A stretch of 64,000 nucleotides of DNA from Candidatus Uhrbacteria bacterium (GCA_018664485.1 JABJOE010000009.1:76635-140634), one strand, 5' to 3'; shown: positions 1,272-49,284, numbered from the stretch's first letter. The notes: generated by a model from the letters alone, not told the origin. A program made the numbers and translations.

Positions 1272-1274
1272 AGT

Positions 1275-1661: not shown

Positions 1662-1663
1662 AA

Positions 1664-1777
1664 TTATCCTTGACGTTGCTTATGCTTTGGAATTTTACAG
1701 ATTACCCAAACACGACCCTTTCGACGGATCACTCGACAGTCTCGACACATAGGTTTTACTGATGCTCGAACTTTCAT
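1664..1777 (-). CDS. rpmJ: 50S ribosomal protein L36
   Basis: Not in the ORF track (37 aa). Manual translation gives [37 protein letters not shown], the canonical zinc-ribbon L36, 2 nt upstream of the rpsM start. Confidence 0.9.
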
Positions 1778-1854
1778 AATTGGGTGTTGAAAATAGTTCT
1801 ATCACAAAGTCATCCTTAAAACTTGGATGACATTGTCAGGCAAGAGATACCGTA

Positions 1855-2070
1855 TCAGAAACGATACGTGATTCTTCCCTTTGTGAGATCATACGGACTG
1901 ATCTCGACTTTGACATCATCGCCTGGCATGACGCGAATACGGAACTTCCGTAGCCGGCCGGCCAATTTAGCGATAACTTCTTGTTCGTTCTCGAGTTTTA
2001 CGCGGAACGTAAGACCAGGCAGAGCCTCCTCTATTGTTCCTCGCATTTCGATGAATTGTTTTTCTGCCAT
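1855..2070 (-). CDS. infA: translation initiation factor IF-1
   Basis: Internal start [19 protein letters not shown]...; 72-aa S1-like OB fold typical of IF-1. Confidence 0.9.
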
Positions 2071-2162
2071 AACTACGAGCGGAATTCTATCAGAATTAGG
2101 CAAAAAGTACAAATGAACGTTGCGGCACGATTGTATTGCATGTTGATAGTTTAGTCAAGAAT

Positions 2163-4237: not shown

Positions 4238-4669
4238 CTATGCCCAAAGCTTATTCAAGTCATTGCCGCTGATGAACTCAGGCATGTGAACACCTCTTTT
4301 TGTCTGACGAGAAGCCCTTGCCTGTCTACGAATCAACTGGCAAAGCTCCATTGCCCTGGGCACTTCGTTAGCGTCCACGTGTGCCCCTGAACTCATACGG
4401 CATGTAACACCGCCATCACCGTTCTCCATGTACTTCAACACACCTGGATGACGAACCATCTTAACGCCCAGATCCAGAACCTGCTGATAGGTGATGTCTC
4501 CAAAACCCAGCGCATGTGCCGAAACGACTGTCTGCCTACGACTCGTAGGAAGAGCGCCGTGCCCCAGAAGGGCTGTAGGACGAATTACTGTGACCGATGA
4601 ACCGTCTGCGAACCAAAAGGTCCTCATTCCGAGCTCATCCCTCTGATAAAGCGGCTGATTTTCAGCCAT
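4238..4669 (-). CDS. hypothetical protein, GC-rich cassette A (143 aa)
   Basis: ORF 4238..4762 trimmed to MAENQPLYQ..., which follows the conserved leader repeat directly. The N-terminal extension in the ORF track is just translation of the repeat. No recognisable family. Confidence 0.5.
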   Translation of the reverse strand: MAENQPLYQRDELGMRTFWFADGSSVTVIRPTALLGHGALPTSRRQTVVSAHALGFGDITYQQVLDLGVKMVRHPGVLKYMENGDGGVTCRMSSGAHVDANEVPRAMELCQLIRRQARASRQTKRGVHMPEFISGNDLNKLWA

Positions 4670-4729
4670 ATCGTCTCTTCTGAACCGTAGTTTTGTCCGG
4701 CTCGCAGCGCATCCCTGGGGAGATCCCAG
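4670..4729 (-). repeat. conserved cassette leader, copy A (about 48 nt plus covarying 5-bp hairpin)
   Basis: Gene-strand consensus CAGGGATGCGCTGCGAGCCGGACAAAACTACGGTTCAGAAGTAAAGAGGA then ATG. Four copies at 4670, 5162, 5601 and 6171. Confidence 0.85.
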
Positions 4730-4786
4730 AGTGTACGCATCTAAGCCCCCGAGTGATCGCACTCGGGAGACGCAGTATCTGTGGAC

Positions 4787-5161
4787 CTAAAGGCAAACCG
4801 GATAATGAATCACTCCTGATTGATCAGAAGCTACAGACTGCTCAGCGAGCATTCTCTCAACCTGCCTAACCTTGTCCATATCGCGAAGCACTTGTGTTAT
4901 TCCTTTGTCATCAACCCATTCAAACGCCACTCTGTAGCGACCCTTGAAGTGCTGCCGGAATATCTTCACCCCTCGGACTTCACGAGTTCCAGGAAGGAAC
5001 CAAGTCATAAGGAGTGACAAGAGCCACGGCCACTTCACGAAAAAGTTCGTGAGTCTCGTCTGCTCTCCAACAAGCCTTCTTCCACTGGAGAACCAGATTT
5101 CCAGCTCACCCTGTCCGTTCACTGCCGTGTGAACGGGAACCATTTCCTTGATAGATTTCAT
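4787..5161 (-). CDS. hypothetical protein, GC-rich cassette B (124 aa)
   Basis: The ATG sits immediately after the leader repeat, which ends in an AGAGGA Shine-Dalgarno sequence. No recognisable family. Confidence 0.5.
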   Translation of the reverse strand: MKSIKEMVPVHTAVNGQGELEIWFSSGRRLVGEQTRLTNFFVKWPWLLSLLMTWFLPGTREVRGVKIFRQHFKGRYRVAFEWVDDKGITQVLRDMDKVRQVERMLAEQSVASDQSGVIHYPVCL

Positions 5162-5225
5162 TCCTCTTTACTTCTGAACCGTAGTTTTGTCCGGCTCGCA
5201 GCGCCTCTTTGAAACCAATCAAAGA
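5162..5225 (-). repeat. conserved cassette leader, copy B
   Basis: Near-identical to copy A. The preceding hairpin TTTGA-ttggt-TCAAA covaries with CTGGG-atctc-CCCAG of copy A. Confidence 0.85.
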
Positions 5226-5276
5226 AGAGCGATAGAGCCCCAAAGCGTCACGCGCTTTGGGAAGGTCTGGACCTTT

Positions 5277-5600
5277 TTAGATCCGATCAATTCTTGCCAT
5301 GACACAAATACACCTAATAGTATCACCTAGTTCAAAGATGAAGCGCAGCGTTACCTGTCTAGCAGCTTGAATACAGGTGTAGACCAAAATGTTCATGGCA
5401 CCATCCTCACTGTAATGGCTTCCTGCACGGTACCAAAGTGGACTATCTCTAAGGATTTCGTCCAACTCTGCGAACCAGTCACTATTTCGAGACACCATCA
5501 CTCGATAATGAGACTCGTGAAGAAAGTCTCTCGGAATGAAATTCGGATTAGGCTCGAAGGTTCCATAAGGAACTGGAACTATGACTATAGAGCTACTCAT
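5277..5600 (-). CDS. hypothetical protein, GC-rich cassette C (107 aa)
   Basis: The ATG sits immediately after the leader repeat. No recognisable family. Confidence 0.45.
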   Translation of the reverse strand: MSSSIVIVPVPYGTFEPNPNFIPRDFLHESHYRVMVSRNSDWFAELDEILRDSPLWYRAGSHYSEDGAMNILVYTCIQAARQVTLRFIFELGDTIRCICVMARIDRI

Positions 5601-5661
5601 GTCTTTTTACAGAACCGTGGTTATTTCCGGCTCGCAGCGCATCCCTGAAACGAATTTTCAG
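5601..5661 (-). repeat. conserved cassette leader, copy C
   Basis: The GGGATGCGCTGCGAGCCGG core is conserved. The hairpin CTGAAA-attcg-TTTCAG covaries with the other copies. Confidence 0.8.
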
Positions 5662-5753
5662 AGCTGTGCAGTTGAGCCACCGAGAGAAAATCTCTCGAGT
5701 GACACGAACTTTTGTTTATGCGGTGTTCGTACGTAGAACCGCTAGATATGAAC

Positions 5754-6170
5754 TTATTTTACTGGCGGTCGAAGGAAGCGCTGATCAACCATTTTTTTGT
5801 ACTTTTCAGTTGACAGTTCTTCGTATGTGAGCTGAGTCGGGTAAACAATCCCCTCACAGATACTAGCAGCCTCCTGCTGTCCAGCAATCCGCAACAGGAG
5901 CTCTCTTCGATCGTCTGCGAGTGTGACGTGGTAGCCACCTCTCACGTCCAACCAATAGACAGTGTCACCTTCCTCATCATCAAAGTAAGCCAGAATTCCT
6001 GCAAAGAATCCGTACTCGACGTCATTGAGGACATTGTCAGGATCCTTCACCTTTCCGTACCTGTACTCCGTTCCTTTTGGGGCCCCGCAGCACCTTCCGT
6101 CCAGTGCGAAGATCCATTCTTTTCCGGTGATGATGACCTTGATCAGGTCACTAGATGTGCTATCGGGCAT
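5754..6170 (-). CDS. hypothetical protein, GC-rich cassette D (138 aa)
   Basis: ORF 5754..6293 trimmed to MPDSTSSDLIK..., which follows the leader repeat (…GTAAAGAG ATG). No recognisable family. Confidence 0.5.
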   Translation of the reverse strand: MPDSTSSDLIKVIITGKEWIFALDGRCCGAPKGTEYRYGKVKDPDNVLNDVEYGFFAGILAYFDDEEGDTVYWLDVRGGYHVTLADDRRELLLRIAGQQEAASICEGIVYPTQLTYEELSTEKYKKMVDQRFLRPPVK

Positions 6171-6233
6171 CTCTTTACTTCTGAACCGTGGTAGAACCGG
6201 CTCGCAACGCATCTCTAGAAAAGAACTTCCTAG
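6171..6233 (-). repeat. conserved cassette leader, copy D (first in transcription order)
   Basis: …GATGCGTTGCGAGCCGGTTCTACCACGGTTCAGAAGTAAAGAG ATG. Confidence 0.8.
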
Positions 6234-6366
6234 CTTATGCGTATTTAGGCCCCCGAGATAACTCGGATGTAAAAAAACTGGCAACCACAACAATTAAGTC
6301 GTAATCCCAGTAATCTGATCGCTGGTTCAGAGATATATTGTCTGACAATTCTTTACCTCTGAGACA

Positions 6367-6395
6367 AGGATAGCATAAAATCGCACTTTTGTCAA
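6367..6395 (-). promoter_or_regulatory. putative promoter of the cassette array (TTGACA, 17 nt, TGcTATCCT)
   Basis: Gene-strand ACTTGACAAAAGTGCGATTTTATGCTATCCT. About 24 nt are identical, spacer included, to the promoter at 18625 and highly similar to the one at 29905. Confidence 0.45.
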
Positions 6396-6427
6396 GTACG
6401 ACCGAACAAATAAATCGCTTATCTTAG

Positions 6428-8035
6428 CTAATTTTGTTCCAAAATTGCCTCTTCGGGGTGATTTTTACGCATAATCTTTCGGCGAAGTCCGCTAACTATA
6501 TTGAGTAGCTCCTCGCTTTTGAACAGATAAGCAATTGATACATAAACAAGAAGTCCAGCGCCACCTGCAACCAACAATTGAGCGAAAACGCCAACAAATG
6601 TATCGAGTGTAATCCACTCAACTACAACACCCTTAACAATCTGAGTAACGACCCCACAGCATGCCGCAGCAGCCACAAAGACCAATAGAGACTTTGCAAT
6701 GTGCAACTCGCCCAAGCTCCCCATCTTCACACGTAACCACCCCCATAGGAAGACGAACTGAATGACAACAGCAATCGAATATGCAGCGCCTAATCCGATT
6801 ACACCAAATTCTTGGGTTAATAACACCGCGGCAAATCCATGAAATACAGCCGCGAACGTTCCTATTATAAACGGAGCAACTGTCTGCCCACGTGAAAAGT
6901 ATACTCGCACCAATAAGTAAATTAGCGCCTGGATAGTCAGCGTCATAGCAAAGAGCCCCAATGTGTTCGCGGTAAGAATTGTAGCCTCCCAGTCGAATTG
7001 ACCAGCACCCACCACTAAACGGACAACCTGCGCACGAAGCATGATGAATAGAACTGTTGCAGGAACTAAAAAGAATAACATCTGCCTTGCCGTGGATGAG
7101 ATCGTTTGTACAAACGCTTTCTTCTTTTTATCATTCGCCAACTCGCACAATGTCGGATACGCAGCTATAGCGTACGACACCCCAATGATCCCAACTGCAA
7201 AAAAGTTCAAATTATATGCGAATTGCAAAACCGTTACTGACCCTACAGCTAACGTTGAAGCGATAGCAGTCATCAAAAAGATATTCACCTGCCCCACCGC
7301 AAGACCTAGGGTTCTCGGCATCATATGCTTAAGCGTATAGATAACGTCTTTGTCTTTGAGAACTAAACTAAATTTAAAACGATGACCAAGCGCCCTCGCC
7401 CCCATCCATTGCGTAAACATATGCAATGCGGCTCCGATAACAACACCCCAAGCCAGACCTATCGGCCACTCTTCCGTTGCAATCCATACAGCTCCAACGA
7501 TAATACCTACATTGTAAAAAATTGGAGCCAGCGAGTATATAAAGAACCGCTTAGCACCCTGTAGCACCGATCCGTAGATCATAGACACGGACAAAAGGAA
7601 CTGAGCTAAGAACATCACACGGGACATGTCAGCGACCATATCAAGCTTAGCCTGCGAGAATCCAGGGGCAACCATGGCGGCTAATGGATCGGCCGCAACC
7701 ATCATTATAAGCGTCACTACACCAAAACCGATAGCAACCAGTGTAAGCATGGTGTTTGTAAATTTCCACGCCTTCTTTATTCGTTTTTTGTGATAGTACT
7801 TTGTAAAAATCGGAATGAAACTAGCAGAAAGTGCTCCCACGACAATCATCTGAAACATCAAATCAGGAATCCGAAATGCTGCAAAATACACATCTAAGAC
7901 ATCAGAAGCTCCAAACAGTCCAGCCAAGATTCTATCGCGAACGAATCCTACAAGACGAGACAGAATCGAAAACAGTGCAACAATTGCTGCTGCACTTGTA
8001 ATCGTATTAGATTTTCCTGAGAGCCATGAAAACAT
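6428..8035 (-). CDS. murJ: lipid II flippase MurJ (MviN family)
   Basis: 535 aa polytopic membrane protein. The N-terminal VGFVRDRILAGLFGASDVLDVYFAAFRIPD is characteristic of MurJ. Confidence 0.85.
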   Translation of the reverse strand: MFSWLSGKSNTITSAAAIVALFSILSRLVGFVRDRILAGLFGASDVLDVYFAAFRIPDLMFQMIVVGALSASFIPIFTKYYHKKRIKKAWKFTNTMLTLVAIGFGVVTLIMMVAADPLAAMVAPGFSQAKLDMVADMSRVMFLAQFLLSVSMIYGSVLQGAKRFFIYSLAPIFYNVGIIVGAVWIATEEWPIGLAWGVVIGAALHMFTQWMGARALGHRFKFSLVLKDKDVIYTLKHMMPRTLGLAVGQVNIFLMTAIASTLAVGSVTVLQFAYNLNFFAVGIIGVSYAIAAYPTLCELANDKKKKAFVQTISSTARQMLFFLVPATVLFIMLRAQVVRLVVGAGQFDWEATILTANTLGLFAMTLTIQALIYLLVRVYFSRGQTVAPFIIGTFAAVFHGFAAVLLTQEFGVIGLGAAYSIAVVIQFVFLWGWLRVKMGSLGELHIAKSLLVFVAAAACCGVVTQIVKGVVVEWITLDTFVGVFAQLLVAGGAGLLVYVSIAYLFKSEELLNIVSGLRRKIMRKNHPEEAILEQN

Positions 8036-8036
8036 C

Positions 8037-9341
8037 CTATTTCTTCTTCGGCGTCTTCTTTGTGACTCGCTTTTTAACCGGCGTTTTTTTCTTCGTAACT
8101 ACTTTTTTCTTTACAGTTCGTTTTTTTACCACTCGCTTTTTAGGAGCAGATACCTCAGCTGGTTTAACTACATTGGTCTGCACACTCTCAGCGGCACGAT
8201 GAGCTTTACGCAATGCTACGCTCGACAGAATGAGCAGGATCAACAGAATTCCAATCAGCATCTGAATCATCGGGTTTGCAAGATGGAACAACGATATTGT
8301 AATCACCTGTGAATCAACTGTCGTCACTCCCTGTGCATCCGAAACGGTAAGCGACACAGTGTAGCGCCCTGCATTTAAAAACGTGTGTGAGATGGTTCTC
8401 TGAACAGAAGAAGTTCCGTCACCGAAATCCCATTTCAACGAATCGTATGATCCTTCAGGTGTAAGCGCTTCGAATTCATACGTCTTCCAATCACGGCGTA
8501 CATATACGAAAGAAGAATCTGGAGAAACATTCAAGACCGCACCCGAAGACCGCTCTAACAAAGTCGTATCAACTGATGTCGTCTCTTCAACTACTTCCAA
8601 CTCTTCAACAGCGTCCACAGATTCGTCGCTCACCTCAACCTCCTCCACTTCAACCACAACCTCCTCAGCAGCTTCTTCGACTGCTATTTCTTCAACTTCT
8701 TCAGCTACTTCTAACTCGCTTCGTGATGCATCCGTTGGATAAGCGTCACTTGCGTCAGGCACTCCATCACCATCTGAGTCTTTATCAAGTGGATCGGTAC
8801 CCAGCTCATCCTCGACATCATCATCAATACCATCGTTATCATCGTCATCGTCACAGACATCACCCTCACCGTCACCATCTGAATCAGTCTGATTTGCGTT
8901 TGAGACAGTTGGACAATTGTCGTCATCGTCATCCACACCATCGCCGTCCTGATCAAAGATCGGAGTATATAGTGGCGTAAGATATGAGTTGTTTGATGTA
9001 TCACTGTCTTCTGGAGTCGTGCTGTCAATCTGAATGAAAATATTGAAAGAATCAGATGGCACCGTGAAGTCAGCCCAGACCTCTTCATCATTTCCACCAG
9101 ACACAACCGTTACAACCTGGCTTCTGCCGAGTAAATCATCCGCGTGATAAAAAGCTACGTAGCCAGTCGTATCTTCATCTCCCGAATTTCTGATTGTTGC
9201 ATATACACGCACCTCATCGCCAACTGTAAACGTTTCTGTCGAAAAGCGAGTATGAGTTGATCGTAATTCAAGATCCGACGTGGCAAACGTGGCCATCGGG
9301 AACAAGAGTATTGCAAGACTTATAAAAAGTAATCGTTTCAT
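8037..9341 (-). CDS. cell-surface protein: signal peptide, acidic Asp-rich calcium-binding-like repeats, PKD-like domain, one TM helix, poly-Lys cytoplasmic tail
   Basis: Signal peptide at the N-terminus. DxDxDG-type runs (DSDGDGVPDASD) resemble thrombospondin type-3 repeats. WDFGDGTS...YTVSLTVSD resembles a PKD domain. TM helix, then a KKRVVKKRTVKKKVVTKKK tail. Confidence 0.6.
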   Translation of the reverse strand: MKRLLFISLAILLFPMATFATSDLELRSTHTRFSTETFTVGDEVRVYATIRNSGDEDTTGYVAFYHADDLLGRSQVVTVVSGGNDEEVWADFTVPSDSFNIFIQIDSTTPEDSDTSNNSYLTPLYTPIFDQDGDGVDDDDDNCPTVSNANQTDSDGDGEGDVCDDDDDNDGIDDDVEDELGTDPLDKDSDGDGVPDASDAYPTDASRSELEVAEEVEEIAVEEAAEEVVVEVEEVEVSDESVDAVEELEVVEETTSVDTTLLERSSGAVLNVSPDSSFVYVRRDWKTYEFEALTPEGSYDSLKWDFGDGTSSVQRTISHTFLNAGRYTVSLTVSDAQGVTTVDSQVITISLFHLANPMIQMLIGILLILLILSSVALRKAHRAAESVQTNVVKPAEVSAPKKRVVKKRTVKKKVVTKKKTPVKKRVTKKTPKKK

Positions 9342-9353
9342 AGCAAAATTATA

Positions 9354-9926
9354 TCATGATACGAGCCTGGCATGCGTTGGCCGTGTAATCCACAACTCTC
9401 TCGCGTGATCGGCATGTAAATCAACCTGAAGTTTAAAAGTAGGATGAACCCGTACCACAACGTTATCAATGCGTCGTGGACTATTCCCAATTATCTCAAT
9501 CGATACTTCGTCACCATTATTAATATGGAAAGATCTAGCATCTGACGGAGAGCATCGCAAATGCGGACGCATAACAATCACACCTTTTTTTAACTCAACC
9601 TCCCCTGCCGGGCCAACCAACCTACAAGAAGCAGCCTGAGACAAATCGCCAGACAATGCGTCTTTCGCATTAATACCTAAAAATGCAGACTCGGTAGATG
9701 TTATTTCAACAAAGCTGTGCTCCCACGACGGACCGAGCACTCGAAGTTTCATAGATCGCTTCAACTTTCCAAAAACTTCAACACTCTCCTCGTAGAAATG
9801 CTGTCCGCCTTGTGTAAGCGAACCCTCTATGGTCATTGCATAACCATGACCAAACAATGCCAGCTGGTCATCCTGGCTGAGGTATACATGTGACGGAATA
9901 ATATCTACTGGAATTGGGCGAGACAT
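9354..9926 (-). CDS. pduL: PduL-type phosphate acyltransferase (phosphotransacetylase/propanoyltransferase)
   Basis: Two-repeat architecture aligns block by block with Salmonella PduL (RPIPVDIIPSHVYLSQDDQLALFG; VIVMRPHLRCSPSDA; GDEVSIEI). Confidence 0.75.
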   Translation of the reverse strand: MSRPIPVDIIPSHVYLSQDDQLALFGHGYAMTIEGSLTQGGQHFYEESVEVFGKLKRSMKLRVLGPSWEHSFVEITSTESAFLGINAKDALSGDLSQAASCRLVGPAGEVELKKGVIVMRPHLRCSPSDARSFHINNGDEVSIEIIGNSPRRIDNVVVRVHPTFKLQVDLHADHARELWITRPTHARLVS

Positions 9927-38649: not shown

Positions 38650-40230
38650 TCATGATAGCTCCTCCTTCTTCTCTTTTACAAATTCAAACCATTCTTCCGT
38701 GAAGCGTACAGCAACTTTGTATGGAGCCTCAATAATGAAGTCGAAGAAATAGATAAAGACATTCACCTTTGCAACCTTCACAGATAACCATCGTCCTGCA
38801 CGCACTATTGGAAGCATTAGAAGGTCAAACATTGAACCGATGATACCGCGGCGGGACTTTGAAAGTATAATATCCCTTGTAAGCCCACGAATGCGAATTC
38901 CAAAGAATGTTACAAGCGACAGGAAGAACAAGAACAATGCAATAGAAAAAGCATTGAAACCAAGCTTATGCAAGAAAAATGCGATAGCACCGTATATAAC
39001 AAAGAACAATAGAGAATATACTACCGCAAAAATCTGCTTCCACGCACCGAATCTATTGACTTGCACCTTAACATTCAACATATCGTGGCTCGCACCTACT
39101 ACAAGAGCGCGTGCTGCTGACTTATAGTCCTCAGCATTACGACGTTCCGGCAAAGTTACAGTAAGTCCTATGATGGCCAAGAAGATCGGGTGGAATAAAA
39201 TATTTACAATAAGTGGAACTATAAATAGCTCACCATGTACAAGTAAGTCGTATGGAATCTCGAGTATCAGAGCTAAGAACATCTTTGTTATGAACAAAAA
39301 TGCTACTGCCCGCACAACCGTTCTCCGTAAACGTTTTCGGAATGTACTAGTCTGTACTTTTAACCTCTTCCACATTGCACGACCTAACAAATCCGGTTCC
39401 TGTGTAACATACCCCTCAAACTCATGTGGAAAATTTTCAATGACATCCAGCAACACGCGGAACAATCCAGCCTTACGACGAACGCGATGAGTAAGCTTCT
39501 CAGTCAACCAATGCTCAATCTGCAAATCAACGGTCGCTATTACAGTTTCTAGATTTTGTGCAATCTCCAAAATTCGAGCCCGCGATGATGCGCCAACCCA
39601 ATCCGGATAATACAGTGTCATCAACCTGTAACGAAGTGTTGCATGGTTAGATTTGAGTAATGTCTTGTGGCATGCAACGAAAAGTCTAATGTCCCTATCC
39701 TCTTCACTTACATCAAGTTTAGTATCCCACGCGGTTCTCTTCTTTAACTCCTCATACATGTAACTTGCCATGTACTCCTCTCTATCATGCGAAATCAATG
39801 TATATTCAACTTCTGTCGACAATACATCTAACACCCATGTCATTGCATATTCTGGGTTTGATGTCTTCTGAGCTGCGTCAAAGATTGGTCCGTACTTTAA
39901 AAAGACTGGTTTTAAATCGTTAATAAATGATGTTGGGACCTGCTTATTTGGAAGATATTTTGCCCAAACAAGTTCCTGCAATAAAAGTGATGCCATGTCT
40001 TCCAGAACCGTATCGGAACCCAAATACCTACGCAATATTCGCGTAATGGCATTCCGTCTAAGAAGATGCTCTTCCTGATATTCAAGCGTTGTACGAACAC
40101 GTTCATACAGTGCTGCGGCAGTAGATGCCGGAACACTAACCTCAATAGTCTCCTCCCCATCACCTTCAGGTGGAACCATTGGTTTTGAGCCGATAATAGC
40201 TTGGCCGATTTGTGAGAGTCGATTGGACAT
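38650..40230 (-). CDS. hypothetical membrane protein (about 270-aa cytosolic N-domain plus about 6 TM helices)
   Basis: Hydrophobic C-terminal half; no recognisable catalytic motif. Confidence 0.5.
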   Translation of the reverse strand: MSNRLSQIGQAIIGSKPMVPPEGDGEETIEVSVPASTAAALYERVRTTLEYQEEHLLRRNAITRILRRYLGSDTVLEDMASLLLQELVWAKYLPNKQVPTSFINDLKPVFLKYGPIFDAAQKTSNPEYAMTWVLDVLSTEVEYTLISHDREEYMASYMYEELKKRTAWDTKLDVSEEDRDIRLFVACHKTLLKSNHATLRYRLMTLYYPDWVGASSRARILEIAQNLETVIATVDLQIEHWLTEKLTHRVRRKAGLFRVLLDVIENFPHEFEGYVTQEPDLLGRAMWKRLKVQTSTFRKRLRRTVVRAVAFLFITKMFLALILEIPYDLLVHGELFIVPLIVNILFHPIFLAIIGLTVTLPERRNAEDYKSAARALVVGASHDMLNVKVQVNRFGAWKQIFAVVYSLLFFVIYGAIAFFLHKLGFNAFSIALFLFFLSLVTFFGIRIRGLTRDIILSKSRRGIIGSMFDLLMLPIVRAGRWLSVKVAKVNVFIYFFDFIIEAPYKVAVRFTEEWFEFVKEKKEELS

Positions 40231-40238
40231 GTGTTGTT

Positions 40239-40690
40239 TTAGGGATTAGGGATTAGGTGTTAGGTATCAAAACTCATCAGAGACCAGCTTTCAATGAACG
40301 GATTGAGCTATTTAACATCTTCATAACCTCAGTAAGTGACCCCAATAACGGGTTGACACCGTCATCGTCAACAAACTTTAAACGTTTTGCGATCTCTATC
40401 TGTGTTTCCAATTCTGACCCTGAAGCATACGCAATATAAACAAAACGCAGAAATTCTTTTCTGGAGCCCCTGCCACGTCCCTCTGCAATATTAGAGGGAA
40501 TAGAAACGGCGCATCTCCTCATCTGTGATATAAGTCCATATTGTTCTTCTTTGGGGAAACTCGCAGTCATACGATAGACCGATACCACTAAGTCCATTGC
40601 CTTTTGCCACATGACTAAATCTTTATAACTCTTCACCTCCATACCTATAAGATAGTGTCTATCACCTAATACCTGATACCTATAACCTGA
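40239..40690. mobile_element. IVS-like element: long imperfect inverted repeat of TAGGT heptads enclosing a four-helix-bundle protein gene
   Basis: Left arm TTAGGGATTAGGGATTAGGTGTTAGGTATCA (40239-40270). Right arm TGATACCTATAACCTGA region (40661-40690). The arms are reverse-complementary with wobble pairs and abut the ORF stop and start. Confidence 0.45.
40277..40642 (-). CDS. four-helix-bundle protein (23S rRNA intervening-sequence protein family; Avd-like)
   Basis: 121 aa; …VYRMTASFPKEEQYGLISQMRRCAVSIPSNIAEG… is the hallmark block of the PF05635/TIGR02436 family. Confidence 0.8.
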   Translation of the reverse strand: MEVKSYKDLVMWQKAMDLVVSVYRMTASFPKEEQYGLISQMRRCAVSIPSNIAEGRGRGSRKEFLRFVYIAYASGSELETQIEIAKRLKFVDDDGVNPLLGSLTEVMKMLNSSIRSLKAGL

Positions 40691-41416: not shown

Positions 41417-41481
41417 ATAACAGAATTATAACACGTCTAAAAACCAAAAACGAGACCTTGCGACAGTCTCGTTTCTAAGCT

Positions 41482-41859
41482 CTAGTCAGTGTACTCTCTA
41501 ATCTTTTTAATTACGGTTTCAAGTGTCGTATCCGATTTTACAATATAATCAACTACGCCAAGTGTTTTCGCCCTATCAACATCAGTAACCTGACCTAAGT
41601 TAGTAAGCATTATTACAGGTATATCCTTAAGCTCATCATCTTCTCTCATAGCATCGAGCACGCCAAACCCATCTAACTTTGGCATGATAATATCCAACAA
41701 AACCAGAACGGGTTTTCGTGAACGCATCAACTCTAAACCAATTTCACCATTCTCAGCTACTTCAGCAACAAAGCCTTCTTTATCGAGCTTTGTATTGTAT
41801 ATATTCGCTAAAAACTTGTCGTCTTCAACAATAAGAACATATTTTTTTGAATCCTCCAT
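41482..41859 (-). CDS. single-domain response regulator (receiver only)
   Basis: LIVEDD; phospho-Asp LLDIIMP; T and K positions present. No output domain. Confidence 0.8.
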   Translation of the reverse strand: MEDSKKYVLIVEDDKFLANIYNTKLDKEGFVAEVAENGEIGLELMRSRKPVLVLLDIIMPKLDGFGVLDAMREDDELKDIPVIMLTNLGQVTDVDRAKTLGVVDYIVKSDTTLETVIKKIREYTD

Positions 41860-41862
41860 ACA

Positions 41863-42285
41863 TTAGGCGATCGCCCCCTGCAGATCAGTTGCGGGCAACT
41901 CAATTATTAACTTCACTCTAGAAATAATATCAGTCAATCTATGTTCAGCTTTCACAAAGAATACAGTAGCTTCAAGTTCAAAAGCCTGAGCCACTACCTC
42001 CTCTGATCCTACATTTGAAACAATCACAACTGCAATATGCTTCCATTTTGAGTTTGCACGAACTCGTTTCAAAAAATCTATTCCACTCATTCCGGGTAAC
42101 ATAACATCAAGCCAAATTAGATCAAAAGATCCACCACCCTCTAACTTCTCGAGCGCCTTTTCAGCTGTAACAACAGTCACCACTTCAAAACCCTCTTGCT
42201 TCAGCTTCCTTGAAACCGCTGATTGCAACGGGACCTCATCCTCTACAACTAGAATCCTTTTTGTCTCGTTTTTTGAAATGGCCAT
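41863..42285 (-). CDS. single-domain response regulator (receiver only)
   Basis: LVVEDE; IWLDVMLPGMSG. Confidence 0.8.
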   Translation of the reverse strand: MAISKNETKRILVVEDEVPLQSAVSRKLKQEGFEVVTVVTAEKALEKLEGGGSFDLIWLDVMLPGMSGIDFLKRVRANSKWKHIAVVIVSNVGSEEVVAQAFELEATVFFVKAEHRLTDIISRVKLIIELPATDLQGAIA

Positions 42286-42287
42286 AA

Positions 42288-42614
42288 TTATTTATCAAGT
42301 ATTTTTTTTATCTTTTCTATCGTATTATCCAAAGACACTTCTGCTTTTACAAAAAAGTATGTCTTACCATCCTCAAGATAATCCTCATAAGCTTTCTCAT
42401 CTGAAGTATTTGTAACTACAAATACCGGAATATTTTTCCAATTATCACTATTCCTTATGTTTTTTAAAACCTCCAAACCATTCATGTTTGGCAAATAGTG
42501 ATCCAGCCAAATTACAGAAGGTGAAGGGTCTAGGTGATCCAAATAATCTAATGCTTGAGCACCATCCCGAGCAGTCACAACATCAAACCCAGAAATACCG
42601 AACTTCCGCACCAT
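42288..42614 (-). CDS. N-terminally truncated or atypical receiver domain protein
   Basis: Phospho-Asp (VIWLDHYLP), T and K are present. The beta1 acidic pair is missing and there is a stop 8 codons upstream in frame. Confidence 0.45.
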   Translation of the reverse strand: MVRKFGISGFDVVTARDGAQALDYLDHLDPSPSVIWLDHYLPNMNGLEVLKNIRNSDNWKNIPVFVVTNTSDEKAYEDYLEDGKTYFFVKAEVSLDNTIEKIKKILDK

Positions 42615-43962
42615 GCGGCGTAACTTTTGGCATTAACAATCCAAGTACCAACATTAATGCTCCACAAATCACACATGCAATACCTACAAAAAGTCCAATA
42701 AATGCAAACGCCATCGGTGAAAAGAAAAGGAACGGGAAACTAATCAATATTCCAACTACCTGGCGAATAAATGATCCTCTTACAAAATACCCATCATCAA
42801 CTAACTTGCGCGTTATCGCTCGTTTAATCTTGGTAACATCTGAAGGCAAAATTCTATTCTTTACCTTGTTTAGCTTAACCTCCGTCTTCTTCTTAAATAG
42901 AAGATCAAACAAGAGCTTATGAGCTTCATCTAAGTCGTCGCCCTCTTTCTTTTTGATGATCGTGATATTACCTGGATGCTTTTTCTTTGTATTCCCCTTT
43001 ACATCCATGTCCAAATACCCCTTAGAAGCAAGCTGGATCACCATTGATGACAATAACCTCTGGCTTGGCTGATGAGATAAAAACGAACCTACATACACAG
43101 CCCAAAGTCCATCAGGTGGATCATACTGGGCTATTATTGTGTCATTACGCTTTGGATCTCGACCGGCCCTAGTCCACCAAAAGAACATTGCGCACAAAGC
43201 CATTAACGGAATAACTCCAGCCCAATTATCCATCAAAAACCACAACACTCTATCAAGCGACGTTGGCCGCCAGATTACGCCCGCTGGAACATCCACGGAA
43301 ACGGTCATAAATCCGTCTGTCGCAAAAGCAATTATATTGTCATCTTGTGCTGAACCACAATCCTGTGACGTAGAACCATATGCGCCCGTATAACAGGACC
43401 ACTGAGTGGGCATAAGTCCATCAGGGAAAATAATTGCAGTCGAACTTTCGTTGATTGGCACCTCCCAATCCGTTCCAGTCACATTCCAATATAATGTCGT
43501 TGCAGTATCGCTATACAACAGTGCACGCTCAACCTCATACACAATCGTATACTCATGCTCACCCGTAATGGTAAGGCTAGGATTACCGATCTTAATAGTT
43601 CTGTCCCCTCCTGATTTATATATATCAACCTGAACTTCCTCTCCATCCAATAAAACACCTTGAACGTTCAAATCTATAGTTTGTCGATTTCCAAGATGGT
43701 CCCGATATACAACTGGAATATCCCGATATATTCCATGCTTCTCAGCATTAAACGTGACATCAATCGTTTCTGTAACTAAAAACGATGCATCTTCACGCAC
43801 CTCAATCTCAGAATCAAAATGATCTATTGACCAGCCGTAAAGATCAACATACATGTCATCTTCAAAATAATCGTATCGATCGTACTCAAGTGCTTGGGCC
43901 GGCAATACAAAAACAACCAACAAAAAAATACTTGCAATAACGCCTGAAAAGAATCTAAACAT
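42583..43962 (-). CDS. DUF2207-family membrane protein
   Basis: The HGIYRDIP block after the signal/anchor is the signature of the DUF2207 N-domain. C-terminal TM helices. Confidence 0.6.
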   Translation of the reverse strand: MFRFFSGVIASIFLLVVFVLPAQALEYDRYDYFEDDMYVDLYGWSIDHFDSEIEVREDASFLVTETIDVTFNAEKHGIYRDIPVVYRDHLGNRQTIDLNVQGVLLDGEEVQVDIYKSGGDRTIKIGNPSLTITGEHEYTIVYEVERALLYSDTATTLYWNVTGTDWEVPINESSTAIIFPDGLMPTQWSCYTGAYGSTSQDCGSAQDDNIIAFATDGFMTVSVDVPAGVIWRPTSLDRVLWFLMDNWAGVIPLMALCAMFFWWTRAGRDPKRNDTIIAQYDPPDGLWAVYVGSFLSHQPSQRLLSSMVIQLASKGYLDMDVKGNTKKKHPGNITIIKKKEGDDLDEAHKLLFDLLFKKKTEVKLNKVKNRILPSDVTKIKRAITRKLVDDGYFVRGSFIRQVVGILISFPFLFFSPMAFAFIGLFVGIACVICGALMLVLGLLMPKVTPHGAEVRYFWV

Positions 43963-44347
43963 TTTCTTTGGTCTCGTTAGCACAGACATGTATTATATCA
44001 ATAATATCCTGAATTTTAACCTCTGTTTTTACTAAATATTTTGTTACCCCAAAGCGGCCCGCCTCTAATTTATCAGACTCCTGTCCAAGGTTGGTGAGCA
44101 TCACTACCTCAACATCTTTCCCACCATCTATTCCACGAAGTTTTTCTAAAAACTCAAAACCATTCATCTTTGGCATCATAACGTCCAACAGAATAATCGA
44201 CGGCATCTGATTCTCAACATATTCCATTGCTTCCAAACCGTTTGCCGCTGACACAACGTCTACTCCCCCCTTGGAAAGCTGTTCAGTGTAAACACTTCTC
44301 AGGAACTCATCGTCGTCTACAATTAAAACTGTGCAATTTTTATTCAT
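43955..44347 (-). CDS. single-domain response regulator (receiver only)
   Basis: LIVDDDEFLR...ILLDVMMPKMNG. Confidence 0.8.
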   Translation of the reverse strand: MNKNCTVLIVDDDEFLRSVYTEQLSKGGVDVVSAANGLEAMEYVENQMPSIILLDVMMPKMNGFEFLEKLRGIDGGKDVEVVMLTNLGQESDKLEAGRFGVTKYLVKTEVKIQDIIDIIHVCANETKENV

Positions 44348-44350
44348 ACA

Positions 44351-46228
44351 CTAATCAAAATGAATCCAAAATCGTGAACCCTCACCTTCAGTTGAGTTAA
44401 ATCCAACATTTAAATCCATTACATCGGCTAGCTGTTTAAAGGCGTACAGACCGAGCCCTATACCGTCATTACGACCTCTATCTACGTTGGAGCCACGATG
44501 GAATTTAGAAAATATCTTATCCTGCTCCCCTGCCGGAATACCTACACCTGTATCTGTTACTGAAAATAGTTTTCCAGTGCTATCAGATTTAACATCAATA
44601 ATAATCGAACCTTTCTGTTGAGTATATTTCATTGCGTTTGAAATTAGAATCGTACAGAGCTCACGAACAAGCAGAGGGTCAGCAAAAACGTAAATCTTTT
44701 CTTCGCGTAAAGTCTCTACATCAAATTCTTTATTTTCAATTACATCCTCGTATTTGTGCAGTATCTTCTGCACCAATGTCACGAGTTCAACACGTTCTGG
44801 ATTACTTTTCACAAGACGGCTATCAATGCGGGATATGTTTAAGAACCCATCAACCAATTCAACCATCTCTACTGTCGACTCGTTCATACGAGCGATGTAC
44901 TTATGCTGTTCATCTGACAATTTACCAACCTTTTCATCTGACAGTAATTCTCCTGACCATTTAAGTACAGCTAAAGGCTTTCGGAGCTGATGCGAAGCGA
45001 GAGAAATGAACTCTGTTTTCATGGTGTCAATAACATTAAGCCTTTCAGCCATGTTATTAAACAACCCTCCTAGAACACCGATCTCATCTGAACCACTCGG
45101 ATGCGCACGCGCTGTAAAATCGTGACCATCCATTTTCTTTACAGCGGAACTCAAATCTCTCAATGGCACCAAAATACCACGCGCAGGAAGTATCGTGAGT
45201 AACAATGCAATAATCAAAACTACAAAACTAGATATTGCAACATTACGTTTCAACCTAGCCAACCCTTCAAGCGCTGCATCCTCTTCCACCTCCACTACCA
45301 GAACCCAGCCTCTTGGCAAACAAGATGAAGCACCTATGACGGGAATACCGAACACATTACTGTACCTAAACTCTGCACTATAATTTTCGTCACAAGCAGT
45401 TGCAGCCGGTGTATCAACTTCCTGACTTAATATCACCTGAGCTACATACCTCGACTCACTAATCATCAGCCCCTCACTGTTAACTAAATACATCTCTGAT
45501 GAATATTCAGAACTATCGTCGTCCCAAGTTCCTCCCAAGTCGGTTTGACGTCCTCCGTTTAAAACAGCATTCAGCTCATCTAGTTCAACGTATAAAGCCA
45601 ATACACCCAAGAGCTCCCCCGTGTCACGATGTGTAAGAGGTGCCGATACAACGATCAATTCCTGACCTATATCAAAGTGAGTCTGCACAATCACATCACT
45701 CACAGACGCTTCCCCATATTCATTATTCAACGTATCTAATACGTATAAATGGTCAGATATATCGTACCCCTTAGTTAACTCTACTAAATCTGAAGAAGCG
45801 ACGATATTTATATCTCTATCGAAAATATTGATTCCCGAGATTGTTCTATCTAATGACATCTTATTATCAACGAGATGTCGTTGAAGTTCTTGAGACATGT
45901 CTTCTCCTAAAATAATCTGATTCGTTGCATCTCGAATGAAGCCATCTGACGCAAAATCTACAGCACGCCCTTTTTCTGACTCCAAAAACTCAAGAACATA
46001 TCCTTGCATTACAGAATTAATATCCATTACATTCCGAGACGCTGCATCCGTTAGACTCTCTTGAGCGATATCAAATGCAAAATATGCCGTTGCTCCAACT
46101 GAAAATAAAGAAATGAAAACAAAACCAATAGCGAGCTTAACTGTAATACTAAGATCTCTCCACCAACCGAACTTCTTACCGGAGGTAGATGTTTTTGTTT
46201 TGGACGTGCTGGTCGTGAGTCGTTGCAT
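44351..46228 (-). CDS. sensor histidine kinase with N-terminal TM, Cache-like periplasmic domain, HAMP, HisKA and HATPase
   Basis: H-box ISLASHQLRKPL; C-terminal N/G1/G2 ATPase boxes. Extracytoplasmic domain between two TM helices. Confidence 0.8.
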   Translation of the reverse strand: MQRLTTSTSKTKTSTSGKKFGWWRDLSITVKLAIGFVFISLFSVGATAYFAFDIAQESLTDAASRNVMDINSVMQGYVLEFLESEKGRAVDFASDGFIRDATNQIILGEDMSQELQRHLVDNKMSLDRTISGINIFDRDINIVASSDLVELTKGYDISDHLYVLDTLNNEYGEASVSDVIVQTHFDIGQELIVVSAPLTHRDTGELLGVLALYVELDELNAVLNGGRQTDLGGTWDDDSSEYSSEMYLVNSEGLMISESRYVAQVILSQEVDTPAATACDENYSAEFRYSNVFGIPVIGASSCLPRGWVLVVEVEEDAALEGLARLKRNVAISSFVVLIIALLLTILPARGILVPLRDLSSAVKKMDGHDFTARAHPSGSDEIGVLGGLFNNMAERLNVIDTMKTEFISLASHQLRKPLAVLKWSGELLSDEKVGKLSDEQHKYIARMNESTVEMVELVDGFLNISRIDSRLVKSNPERVELVTLVQKILHKYEDVIENKEFDVETLREEKIYVFADPLLVRELCTILISNAMKYTQQKGSIIIDVKSDSTGKLFSVTDTGVGIPAGEQDKIFSKFHRGSNVDRGRNDGIGLGLYAFKQLADVMDLNVGFNSTEGEGSRFWIHFD

Positions 46229-47219
46229 ATATCACTTCACCCTCGTCTGTAGTGAGGAAATAATAATATTGATTTGATGTCGGATTCAATACTGCCATTA
46301 TAGCATCCATCCCCGGACTACTAATAGGCCCCGGTGGCAATCCAGCATACTGGTAGGTATTATACAACGAATCAATGTCCCGATCTGTAAGTGAAATCGC
46401 TGGTGTGTCCGCGCCTGTAATATAATTGACAGTTGAGTCCGCCTGAAGTGGCATTCCAATCTCTAAACGCTTTAAGAAAATATCAGCAACCATCGCCATC
46501 TCTGACGGAACCATAACTTCTCGCTGAATAATCGATGCGAGAGTTAGTACGTCGTGATTTGTTTCAAGTTGAGACGGGATATTGTTAGCCGAGACCTCTT
46601 CGAGTAACCGGTCTTCCATTGTACCCAATAGCTTCTCTACAACATCTTCACCGCTTGCGTCTGTATAAAATCGATACGTGTCTGGAAATAAATAACCTTC
46701 GAGGTCAACATTGTCAGGTTTTTGTGACTGTACGATGAGATCATTTGACTCATATACAGAATTCATTCCGACAAGTTGATCCCACTCACTTTCTGAAACT
46801 GGAAAAATTGCCATTAAACGTTCACCTATTTGTGCCAAGGTGAACCCCTCTGGAATAGTAAACAGCAAGTCGTCATGAGTTGCATCATGAAGGCTTATCA
46901 CCACAGATGCATAGCTGCTCCCCGGAGTAAGCTCAAACAATCCTGCCTGGATAGATTTTGAGTCTCCGCCAATCACTGTATAAACCTTGAACCAAAAAGC
47001 GCTTGCGATAATGCCATCGTCTTCCAGTGCGCTCGCTATATCGCCTAAAGATGTACCGCTTTCTACTTCAAAAACTATAGTCTCTACATCTTCGCTAGGG
47101 CTCTGCAACCAAAATCTGTAGAGCTGAGAAAATGCGGTAATAGCAAAAATTGCTGACACCAACACAATGAACGCCATGAATCCTAAAAATCCTGCAGCAA
47201 CCTGTTTCGTTGAGATCAT
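46176..47219 (-). CDS. mltG: endolytic murein transglycosylase MltG (YceG-like)
   Basis: N-terminal TM plus YceG fold. The conserved GLPPGPI block near the C-terminus. Confidence 0.8.
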   Translation of the reverse strand: MISTKQVAAGFLGFMAFIVLVSAIFAITAFSQLYRFWLQSPSEDVETIVFEVESGTSLGDIASALEDDGIIASAFWFKVYTVIGGDSKSIQAGLFELTPGSSYASVVISLHDATHDDLLFTIPEGFTLAQIGERLMAIFPVSESEWDQLVGMNSVYESNDLIVQSQKPDNVDLEGYLFPDTYRFYTDASGEDVVEKLLGTMEDRLLEEVSANNIPSQLETNHDVLTLASIIQREVMVPSEMAMVADIFLKRLEIGMPLQADSTVNYITGADTPAISLTDRDIDSLYNTYQYAGLPPGPISSPGMDAIMAVLNPTSNQYYYFLTTDEGEVIYATTHDQHVQNKNIYLR

Positions 47220-48271
47220 AGGTAATCGTTATGGTTTTGATCTTTTAGAATTTGACGAACTTCTTTTAGGCGTTGTGAATCTTCCAACTTGCAAACCAAT
47301 AATGCATCAGATGTATCAACAACGACAACACCTTCCAACCCCACAATAGTAACCAACTTTTCTGGCGGACCGTACACTAGCGATCGTTTTGTATCTACAC
47401 AAACAACCTTTCCTTTTGTAACGTTTCCACCCTCTTCATCACATAGCCTGTCGTGAAGAGAATCCCACGCACCAATATCACTCCAACCGAAGTCACCACG
47501 GATGATTAGCACGTCTTGTGTATCCATCTTTTCTGTCACTGCGTAATCAAAAGAAATTCTTTCAATCTCAGAGTATAAAGCGTTGTCGCCTGTCTTTTGG
47601 ATCTTCCTAAGAAGCGCCCCTGTTTCTGGCGCGTAACGATCAAACGCATCGAGGAAAGCGCGCGGCGTCCACATGTAATAGTTTGCATGCCAAAAGTACG
47701 ATCCGTCTTGCAAATACTGTTTTGCAACTTCGTAATTCGGCTTCTCTGTATGTCCTGCAAATTCAAACACCTCTATGTCTTCAATCGTTTCAAATTGTGA
47801 AGCAACTTTCGTATACCCCATCGCTGTACTTGGAAATACTGGAGGGATTGCAATGTCGAGCAACTTACCTGTTTTTATAATTAAATCCGCACCAACCTTC
47901 AAACACCGCAGGAATAACTCTTCGTCGTTTATATAGTGATCGGACGGAACGAAAACTATCGGTTCGTCCGGGCAAATGTTCATCAGGTGCGCTGCAACGT
48001 ATCCCATCGCAGGACCTGTATCACGCTTTTCAGGTTCGATGATTATGTGATCGTCTTCTACTTCAGGAAAATGCTCGGAAAGTAGCGACGCAAATTCAGG
48101 AGAGGTTGATATATAAATGTCTTCGGGAGCGAAAGATTTCGCCAACCGTTCATACGCATCACGAACTAAAATTTGGTCTCCAACAATGTTGAAAAACTGT
48201 TTCGGCCGATTAGATCGACTCATTGGCCACATGCGTGTACCCGCTCCTCCAGCTAGTAGAATTGCTTTCAT
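47216..48271 (-). CDS. mannose-1-phosphate guanylyltransferase (nucleotidyltransferase domain only)
   Basis: MKAILLAGGAGTRMWPMSR...; NDP-sugar pyrophosphorylase G-rich loop. No cupin isomerase domain. Confidence 0.75.
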   Translation of the reverse strand: MKAILLAGGAGTRMWPMSRSNRPKQFFNIVGDQILVRDAYERLAKSFAPEDIYISTSPEFASLLSEHFPEVEDDHIIIEPEKRDTGPAMGYVAAHLMNICPDEPIVFVPSDHYINDEELFLRCLKVGADLIIKTGKLLDIAIPPVFPSTAMGYTKVASQFETIEDIEVFEFAGHTEKPNYEVAKQYLQDGSYFWHANYYMWTPRAFLDAFDRYAPETGALLRKIQKTGDNALYSEIERISFDYAVTEKMDTQDVLIIRGDFGWSDIGAWDSLHDRLCDEEGGNVTKGKVVCVDTKRSLVYGPPEKLVTIVGLEGVVVVDTSDALLVCKLEDSQRLKEVRQILKDQNHNDYL

Positions 48272-48441
48272 ATCAACAGTATTAAGTGCAGACATATTAG
48301 CACGCTACAGCCTACCGGGCTAATACCGCCGAATGCACAAAACTCCGGCCCTTGAGAGAGCGCGGAGTTGAGAGTGGTAGAGGTGATGTAACTCTAGAAA
48401 AAGCTCCACGTAGAAGCACGTTCTAGAGTTGCACCGGTCAA

Positions 48442-49161
48442 TCACTGGTCGGGGTCTGCTTCGTCAGTCAGGTCAACGAATGGCATGTCGTCGCGGTGCG
48501 CGACCATGATGACGCGACCGTCCTCGTACTCACAGGCCACAGAGTAGTTCATTCCCAAGTACCAACGGTATGCAGGAGAGGCTCTCTTTGTACGAGCTAC
48601 AAATACCTTGAGACCGGCCATTGCCAACTTCCGGTAGCGAGCACGGAACAGGCGTTTGCCAATGCCGTTGGACCAGAGACGTTCAAGAACGAAGATCTCG
48701 TCCTGGTAAGCCACGTGCCCTTCTTCAGGATACCTTCGGTTTAGAAATTCTGCGATCTTTTCATGCCCGGTGGTTCGCTGTACACGACTGGGACGCAGAG
48801 CATATCCCCACGTACCCCCCACTACACCAGGCTTTCCGTCCTGTGTAGCGACAACACAAACCGCGTGCGGATTTTGCATTTGCTTGTGGAGATCAGCGAG
48901 AACATCACTAGCAGGCCAATACGGCACAACGAGTCCGCTACACTTCGGGCAACTCCCATGTGCCGGTGGGCTATCAAGTGGCCAAACGTACGAGCTGCCG
49001 TTGCTCTTGCAGTTTGTACACTTCCACCCCTCATTCCAAGGAGATCCTCCAAATACCCAGGTGTAGCATGTGATGACGTCAGACGCCAAGTCACACACAA
49101 CTGCTTTTTTCTCACCAGCAAGAGGTAAGTACCTGATGCGAATATCCTCAATCAATGCCAT
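48442..49161 (-). CDS. hypothetical protein in a GC-rich island (Cys-rich zinc-ribbon-like segment plus possible GNAT-like C-terminus)
   Basis: Start trimmed to MALIEDIRIR after a GGAGAGG SD. CTNCK...CPKCSG. IGKRLF...AGLKVFV resembles acetyltransferase motif A. GC clearly elevated. Confidence 0.45.
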   Translation of the reverse strand: MALIEDIRIRYLPLAGEKKAVVCDLASDVITCYTWVFGGSPWNEGWKCTNCKSNGSSYVWPLDSPPAHGSCPKCSGLVVPYWPASDVLADLHKQMQNPHAVCVVATQDGKPGVVGGTWGYALRPSRVQRTTGHEKIAEFLNRRYPEEGHVAYQDEIFVLERLWSNGIGKRLFRARYRKLAMAGLKVFVARTKRASPAYRWYLGMNYSVACEYEDGRVIMVAHRDDMPFVDLTDEADPDQ

Positions 49162-49284
49162 GGCCTCTCCTGCGTTACAGGGTTTGCGGTTGATGTGAGT
49201 TTCTCGAATTGAGAAACGGTAAAAGAACACATTTCATATAAACACAAAAATCCCCATATGTCCAGGAGGACTTTACATGGAAAC

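Follow-up and report, generated by a model that had tools for sequence, protein, structure and literature searches.

Gene content and transcription of the locus

The locus described here occupies positions 41482 to 46228 on the minus strand of a 64-kb stretch of DNA (the window, by which the whole stretch analysed is meant) from a Candidatus Uhrbacteria bacterium, a member of the candidate phyla radiation (CPR). Gene order is given as read along that strand. Six minus-strand open reading frames (ORFs) were called: a 625-aa sensor histidine kinase (HK), the stand-alone receiver REC1, a DUF2207 membrane protein, the N-terminally truncated receiver REC2, and the receivers REC3 and REC4. A strong terminator follows, and then a LOG-family gene. 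Searching six-frame ORFs with custom receiver and kinase profiles recovered exactly four receivers and one kinase from the 64 kb. The rest of the window was covered by Pfam searches of its long ORFs (at least 110 aa), run here or precomputed on the source contig, which returned ribosomal proteins, AlaRS, MurJ, PBP, Mur ligase, RNR, UvrA/C, MraZ/MraW and several ORFs without a Pfam match. No histidine phosphotransfer (Hpt) protein, no pilus gene (T2SSE, T2SSF and PilM included) and no further signalling gene was found among these ORFs, nor do the 64 kb encode a hybrid kinase or a DNA-binding regulator. Rfam and tRNA scans of the window gave no match, and NCBIfam provided no family-level assignment, no equivalog and no output domain for any protein of the locus.

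The original prediction, made from the sequence alone, had read these genes as one operon in which a Cache-type kinase serves four receivers, perhaps acting on the DUF2207 protein, with no output domain anywhere. Its inventory stands. ORF calling and Pfam place the six genes on the strand and at the positions it had given; the receivers (108-140 aa) match Response_reg only in Pfam and NCBIfam; and no CheA, CheW or methyl-accepting chemotaxis protein occurs among the ORFs of at least 110 aa in the 64 kb. The prediction had left room for a chemotaxis-like cluster with che genes close by; the defining Che genes are absent from these ORFs, and the locus is therefore not a Che cluster.

Within the locus, neighbouring genes overlap or are separated by gaps of 2-4 nt (REC1 starts 3 nt past the HK stop codon), and this packing continues upstream into two resident housekeeping genes. 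The 3' end of YceG/MltG (46176-47219, minus strand; Pfam YceG) overlaps the start of the kinase by 53 nt, and ManC (47216-48295, minus strand; Pfam NTP_transferase/ManC) overlaps YceG by 4 nt. Because the overlaps and short gaps reach up to YceG and ManC, the likely transcription unit is ManC-YceG-HK-REC1-DUF2207'-REC2'-REC3-REC4, with the two housekeeping genes at its head. It is closed between REC4 and LOG by an intrinsic terminator (41444-41478, minus strand) with a 14-bp stem and a T-run, the top-scoring terminator-like site of the region scan; a further terminator-like site lies upstream of ManC (48417-48403). The LOG gene does follow REC4, as predicted, but it lies behind this terminator and has its own -10 box (TATAAT, between terminator and LOG start), so that it forms a separate unit. 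Nearly all genes of the window are on the minus strand, and co-orientation is therefore no evidence of operon membership here. The listed ORFs are mostly minus-strand and GC skew is negative in 31 of 32 2-kb windows, which fits a single replichore. A scan for promoter-like sites gave 17 against 18.2 expected in shuffled sequence, that is, no excess. Its best minus-strand match, TTAAAA-16-TATAAT with an extended TG (43992-44019), lies inside the 3' end of REC1 just upstream of the DUF2207 start and is only noted, since the scan as a whole does not rise above shuffles.

The sensor kinase

Pfam and a structure model give the kinase (44351-46228, minus strand) the order TM1, dCache_1, TM2, HAMP, HisKA, HATPase_c, where TM denotes a transmembrane helix. 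HAMP, HisKA (E 3.5e-13) and HATPase_c (E 1.4e-18) score above threshold in Pfam; dCache_1 falls below its gathering score (34 bits vs 45, E 2.7e-8). The model of the sensor region (residues 50-345, mean pLDDT 88) consists of a long N-terminal helix and two alpha/beta modules. In Foldseek the PDB entries closest to it are dCache ligand-binding domains from the amino-acid chemoreceptors Mlp37, Mlp24, Tlp3 and PctA (probability 1.00, E 1e-12 to 1e-10), and the earlier label 'Cache-type' is therefore justified. No close relative of the protein was found, the nearest full-length relatives being 37 and 34% identical.

The kinase motifs are readable in the translation (SHQLRKPL, NAMKYT, DTGVGIP, FSKFHRG, GIGLGL) and identify a HisKA-type enzyme whose phospho-acceptor is His413 in SHQLRKPL (H-box at 44978-44992, minus strand). 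HisKA kinases need an acidic residue at H+1 for kinase activity and Thr or Asn at H+4 for phosphatase activity (PMC3510030). In the window kinase these positions hold Gln and Lys, giving HQLRK. The sequence HQLRT occurs in 82 of the 104 family members with a recognisable H-box (homologues P0121-P0240), and HQLRK in the window kinase alone of its clade, its nearest relatives having A, S or G at H+4. If the phosphatase residue is missing, receiver phosphate would have to be drained by some other route, which bears on the idea that additional receivers serve as phosphate sinks.

Akin to the WalK/PhoR-type kinases that contain dCache_1, the window protein is built as TM-dCache-TM-HAMP-HisKA-HATPase_c, and the best NCBIfam similarities of its core are to WalK, PnpS and PhoR, all far below the cut-offs. 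Unlike them, it carries HQLRK in place of H-E/D-x-x-T/N, is partnered by an output-less receiver and not by an OmpR-type regulator, and has borrowed its first 17 residues from another gene.

Three intact receivers and one remnant

REC1 (43955-44347, 130 aa), REC3 (41863-42285, 140 aa) and REC4 (41482-41859, 125 aa), all on the minus strand, have a complete Response_reg domain (PF00072) and qualify as full receivers. The catalytic residues are present in each: DD11-12, D55, T and K in REC1, ED, D, S and K in REC3, and the corresponding set, by alignment, in REC4. REC2 (42288-42614, minus strand, 108 aa) covers positions 20-100 of 111 in the Pfam profile and 22-126 in our own REC profile, and is N-truncated just as the original prediction had stated. 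Aligned with other receivers, it begins at a position matching the end of helix alpha1; it is therefore without beta1/alpha1, the acidic pair and the acidic Mg2+ pocket. An in-frame stop six codons upstream excludes a longer REC2, and the remnant is probably non-functional.

A recent tandem duplication of the receivers was considered and is rejected by their pairwise identities of 27-41%. REC1 is most similar to kinase-adjacent receivers, being 41-43% identical to those encoded directly after HK homologues in two contexts (L010 and L012), and is likely to be the cognate partner of the window kinase. The best relatives of REC3 are at most 39% identical, and a scan of JGI metagenomes with REC3 for the source of the receiver array gave no match above that value. 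REC4 is 62% identical to a 120-aa receiver in a distant syntenic locus (L062), the closest relative of any receiver in the window. A concatenated query of all four receivers retrieved mostly CPR REC-REC proteins of 276-326 aa at 29-48% identity, a type of protein that dominates receiver searches in Patescibacteria. GC content is 0.35 in REC2, 0.37 in REC4, 0.39 in REC1 and 0.41 in HK, against about 0.43 in the neighbouring genes.

DUF2207 and the two junctions

The DUF2207 gene (42583-43989, minus strand, 468 aa) encodes the N domain and an incomplete DUF2207_C, the Pfam match to the latter covering positions 3-203 of 247. Aligned with five full-length relatives (559-576 aa), the protein ends after '...MPKVTPHGAEV', about 105 conserved residues short; the lost part includes the AKGF..YLPYAIAL..DEWAK block and the glycine-rich tail. 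Its start is new as well. The present ATG lies inside the 3' end of REC1, and homology to the relatives resumes in the signal-peptide region. Like other members of its family (PF09972 and PF20990; for example S. mutans SMU.243, PMC10457818), the window protein, an orthologue of the full-length relatives, keeps the extracellular N domain and the greater share of its membrane and cytoplasmic region; unlike them, it is without the last ~105 conserved residues and has a replaced N-terminal start.

At the upstream junction, the ancestral start of DUF2207 has been captured by the kinase. Kinase codons 1-17 (46178-46228, minus strand; MQRLTTSTSKTKTSTSG) lie where the kinase gene overlaps the 3' end of YceG by 53 nt; they are the former DUF2207 leader, comparable to that of the relative P0002, MTNTSKTRLSICVS. 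In a DNA alignment, the match between the window and the YceG/DUF2207 overlap of three relatives (L001, L004, L005) extends as far as the YceG stop codon and is lost immediately beyond it. Homologues of the kinase begin 0-5 residues before the first TM helix, without the 17-codon extension, and no alternative in-frame start ahead of TM1 was seen on reading the window sequence. The homology of the leader and the lack of another start before TM1 together lead to the conclusion that the kinase is expressed from the captured DUF2207 start, and its translation is probably coupled to that of YceG.

At the downstream junction (42600-42615, minus strand), sequence and alignments show DUF2207 (...GAEV) running out of frame into REC2 (RKFG...), which overlaps it by 32 nt in another frame. 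The truncations of the two genes meet at this one point, a pattern typical of deletion or replacement. A duplication model was tried for the 5' junction and rejected: the alignment of YceG/HK with REC1/DUF2207 scored 14 against a shuffle mean of 15.6, giving no evidence of target-site or tandem duplication. A search for transposon-like repeats around the inserted blocks found only short chance matches and a 34-nt motif shared by the paralogues REC1 and REC2.

Two truncated genes meeting at a single point in a metagenome-assembled genome could also raise the suspicion of a chimeric contig, produced in assembly or binning. We find this barely credible. Over 9.7 kb that span the DUF2207/REC2 junction, an ENA contig (L006) is 100% identical to the window, and a Logan contig (L007) is likewise identical over the YceG-HK-REC1 part only; a 986-kb JGI contig yields matching gene calls, the 468-aa and 108-aa products among them. 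Some of these sequences may stem from one and the same sample.

Syntenic relatives and the ancestral gene order

The window DUF2207 is 64, 61 and 53% identical to P0002, P0003 and P0004, and the flanking YceG gives similar values (65, 64 and 61%). ManC and YceG are 65-80% identical to the same genes in L001, L004 and L005, the nearest relatives, where the order is ManC-YceG-DUF2207(full length)-LOG-525-aa protein-GH42-like. In all seven syntenic relatives (L001, L004, L005, L061, L062, L063, L081), a full-length DUF2207 of about 570 aa directly follows YceG; in the more distant of these (L061, L062, L063, L081) it is 32-42% identical to the window protein. LOG comes directly after DUF2207 in L004, L005 and L061, and in L001 after a gene for a PilB-like ATPase. 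That gene (9726-11249 in L001, L002 and L003, which represent the closest relative genome; MshEN-T2SSE) sits between DUF2207 and LOG, the spot taken by REC2-REC4 in the window.

None of the seven relatives has a kinase or receiver adjoining DUF2207. The fetched stretches of L001, L004, L005 and L061 contain neither, and neither occurs in the 6-kb flanks of L063 and L081. Rooting the gain or loss of the signalling genes by the three nearest relatives alone was tried and discarded, as these give only a three-way split (a polytomy) with the window; the more distant syntenic loci settled the matter. On these sequence comparisons, YceG-DUF2207-LOG is the ancestral state, in which DUF2207 is a vertically inherited resident, and the signalling genes are derived.

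DUF2207 and signalling genes elsewhere

Association of DUF2207 with two-component genes was surveyed at 83 loci, 80 from GTDB species representatives across many phyla and three from the nearest relatives. At none of the 83 does a REC or HK gene lie within 1 kb of DUF2207, and a REC anywhere in the ~6-kb flanks was present at three. A literature search found no paper on DUF2207 with two-component systems.

These results bear directly on the reading that had been given to the locus, in which the kinase, the four receivers and DUF2207 make up one dedicated system whose receivers act on DUF2207. Such a system is attractive in that its genes share a strand with overlaps or 2-4 nt spacing, that DUF2207 offers a cytoplasmic segment and has no known function, and that L062 too has a kinase-receiver pair near DUF2207. 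However, the shared strand is uninformative in this window, the relatives with YceG-DUF2207-LOG (in L001 with the PilB-like ATPase gene before LOG) have no signalling genes there, and one and the same junction has cost DUF2207 its C-terminal region and reduced one receiver to a stump. The proposed combination fails because recurrence, its only defining feature, fails in the co-occurrence survey, and the proposed target is a resident gene truncated by derived signalling insertions. We therefore regard a dedicated system as very improbable.

The pair in L062 deserves separate consideration. Behind DUF2207, this locus has an IS200-like Y1-transposase-like ORF, a PAS protein, a GAF-HisKA kinase and the 120-aa receiver related to REC4; the kinase-receiver pair lies about 1.5 kb downstream of DUF2207, past the transposase-like ORF, and the kinase core is only 28% identical to that of the window kinase. 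This arrangement points to the stretch after DUF2207 as a site where mobile signalling modules land repeatedly, and REC4 may have arrived with a different kinase, now gone.

An extension of that idea takes REC3, REC4 and the REC2 stump to be the orphaned receivers of another two-component module, whose kinase once lay between DUF2207 and REC2, was lost in the truncating deletion, and has left receivers that are now decaying or fed by cross-talk. The arrangement in L062, with its divergent kinase and its close relative of REC4, would provide a precedent. REC2 is moreover cut at the junction, REC2 and REC4 have the lowest GC of the region, and REC3 and REC4 are no closer than REC1 to kinase-adjacent receivers. 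On the other hand, REC3 and REC4 retain all catalytic residues, a spacing of 2-3 nt and a good terminator, which fits genes in use, and the relatives compared include no intermediate genome. An orphan origin is thus a real possibility, if on balance a doubtful one.

Kinase-receiver modules and pilus-embedded receivers in CPR genomes

Five genomic contexts of kinase homologues were examined. In four of the five, a dCache-HAMP(-PAS) kinase is directly followed by a stand-alone receiver of 125-134 aa; in the fifth (L008), the kinase closes a type IV pilus cluster whose first genes are PilD and a 121-aa receiver, with PilB, PilC and pilins after them. These contexts, together with the likeness of REC1 to kinase-adjacent receivers, identify HK-REC1 as a member of a recurrent CPR two-gene module without an output domain. 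As in the uncharacterised copies of this module from Kerfeldbacteria and other Patescibacteria contigs, the receiver lies directly downstream of a kinase of the same architecture. The window copy differs in that most relatives carry an extra PAS domain, and it alone is embedded in a ManC-YceG unit with further receivers after it.

Additional receivers occur within type IV pilus operons. Two loci (L013, 3614-10717, and L019, 3565-11128) have the order PilM-x-PilO-PilB-REC-PilT-PilC, with a single receiver between PilB and PilT, and a third (L042) has T2SSE-REC. The pilus-embedded receivers are 47% (L013) and 43% (L019) identical to REC4, 33-38% to REC1 and REC3, and 31-37% to REC2. A different setting is common to two CPR contigs from JGI metagenomes (L015 and L034, ~4400-9800), where a HisKA_7TM kinase, a UDP-glucose/GDP-mannose dehydrogenase, a REC-REC protein (272-273 aa) and a major facilitator superfamily (MFS) transporter are encoded in a conserved context. 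No publication on receivers within the pilus operons of CPR bacteria turned up in a literature search.

It has been reported that CPR genomes are poor in kinases (0.29 HK per 100 genes; PMC10805038) and that CheY-like genes are enriched in sediment-attached ultra-small bacteria (PMC9938205). The low kinase count and the CheY-like enrichment are consistent with a cell-surface role.

A multistep phosphorelay can be weighed against the same contexts. Here the receivers would form the first step of a Spo0F-like relay, from which an Hpt or Spo0B-like protein would carry the phosphate on to a DNA-binding regulator whose gene lies in another part of the genome. The grouping of several stand-alone receivers with a single kinase would suit such a relay, and about 920 kb of the genome lies beyond the 64 kb searched. 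Yet Hpt proteins, hybrid kinases and DNA-binding regulators are absent both from the 64 kb and from the positions next to the kinase in all five homologue contexts, and two-component genes are few in CPR at the kinase density cited above. The suggested look-up for an Hpt protein or hybrid kinase thus came back empty over the window and those contexts. With no Hpt within this reach the locus is not demonstrably a phosphorelay, and we consider a relay improbable.

A model for the locus

Taken together, these observations are probably best explained by a lineage-specific mosaic in this Candidatus Uhrbacteria genome rather than by a dedicated system. Its signalling genes would make up an ordinary two-component pathway in which the receivers work through protein contacts, and DUF2207 would be a bystander. 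Starting from the order ManC-YceG-DUF2207-LOG, a two-gene module (dCache-HAMP HK and REC1) would have been inserted into the first codons of DUF2207, leaving the kinase to be translated from the old DUF2207 start codon within the YceG 3' end and DUF2207 to restart at the ATG in the 3' end of REC1. In a separate event, a promoter-less piece of a receiver array, made up of REC2 without its first ~20 codons, REC3, REC4 and the terminator, would have replaced the last ~105 codons of DUF2207. REC2 would thereby be dead and DUF2207 damaged.

Stand-alone receivers are known to act by binding partners, by shuttling phosphate or as sinks (PMC5964349, PMC12802240, PMC7029496). In the window, the dCache domain would sense a small extracellular ligand, upon which the kinase would autophosphorylate His413 and pass the phosphoryl group to REC1. 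REC3 and REC4 might also take it up as competing acceptors, in a sink or branch arrangement, or may be what remains of a second module since lost. Once phosphorylated, the receivers would bind other proteins; the best candidate target is the motor of the type IV pilus, given that the genes of related CPR receivers lie between those of PilB and PilT. Of the earlier proposals for the receivers, a sink, a branch or action through protein-protein contacts survives as the best reading of stand-alone receivers, and DUF2207 as their target does not.

Several points weigh against the mosaic and its proposed pathway. The window, L005 and the pair of L001 and L004 form the three-way split mentioned above, so that the polarity of change rests on distant outgroups. 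The arrangement in L062 leaves some room for a recurrent association of signalling genes with this neighbourhood. HQLRK departs from the canonical residues, so that catalysis by the kinase may be atypical; Gln at H+1, common to most of the clade, may likewise hint at non-typical catalysis. The 64-kb window contains no pilus gene, and the target is taken solely from relatives at 34-47% identity. Finally, the gene inventory covers 64 kb of a genome of about 1 Mb.

A wider reading takes the pilus connection as a general principle. CPR bacteria, having no Che proteins, would steer their type IV pili, and with them host attachment, twitching and DNA uptake, by means of membrane dCache kinases that signal to stand-alone receivers binding the PilB/PilT motor. 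The present locus would be a multi-receiver version, in which a HQLRK kinase without the phosphatase residue is complemented by extra receivers acting as phosphate sinks. This we hold to be unlikely for the locus at hand, to which the lead from dCache kinase through stand-alone receiver to pilus motor is weakly tied. A more remote variant has the truncated DUF2207 co-opted as a membrane partner of the receivers.

Other variable spots in the neighbourhood

Further genes around the locus differ between the window and its relatives. A 23S_rRNA_IVP or bAvd-like four-helix-bundle gene (40277-40642, minus strand) lies between LOG and a 526-aa protein. In L001, L004 and L005 these two are directly adjacent, and the four-helix-bundle gene is therefore a third lineage-specific insertion within 6 kb. 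The 526-aa protein itself (38650-40230, minus strand) is a multi-TM protein that neither Pfam nor NCBIfam recognises; with 79-83% identity among the relatives it is the most conserved gene of the neighbourhood, and it always comes after LOG. On the other side of the locus, a 262-aa ORF (48442-49230, minus strand) has a GC content of 0.53 against 0.44 for the window, contains paired CxxC motifs and matches nothing in Pfam or NCBIfam. It occupies the slot between an M20 peptidase and ManC, another variable spot, filled by different genes in each relative. In L062, a cluster encoding PilM, a weakly REC-like 125-aa protein, a putative pilin-like ORF without a Pfam match, and PilD (866-3706) is located four genes upstream of YceG-DUF2207.

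Relation to known systems and significance

The locus belongs to the well-known class of two-component pathways that use stand-alone receivers, and its gene order arose by accident in the evolution of a single lineage. Similar to PilG/PilH, DivK, MrrA, EpsW and Spo0F, its proteins REC1, REC3 and REC4 consist of a receiver only and have the full phospho-acceptor set; related CPR receivers are located inside type IV pilus operons. The window receivers differ from these proteins in that their input is a classical membrane HisKA kinase with no CheA/ChpA-type kinase involved, no NCBIfam equivalog is reached, no target gene adjoins them, and the identity to any characterised family is limited to the generic REC fold.

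In the first place, these results are a corrective. What looks like a tidy operon was left behind by two or more insertions or deletions at a plastic site in a reduced genome, and it offers no basis for inferring the function of DUF2207. The way in which the inserted kinase took over, in frame, the start codon of its neighbour exemplifies how a new gene comes to be expressed in a tightly packed genome. Kinases of the dCache clade studied here nearly always come with an output-less receiver, and the receivers found between PilB and PilT suggest a testable route by which host-dependent CPR bacteria could couple sensing to their pili without chemotaxis proteins.

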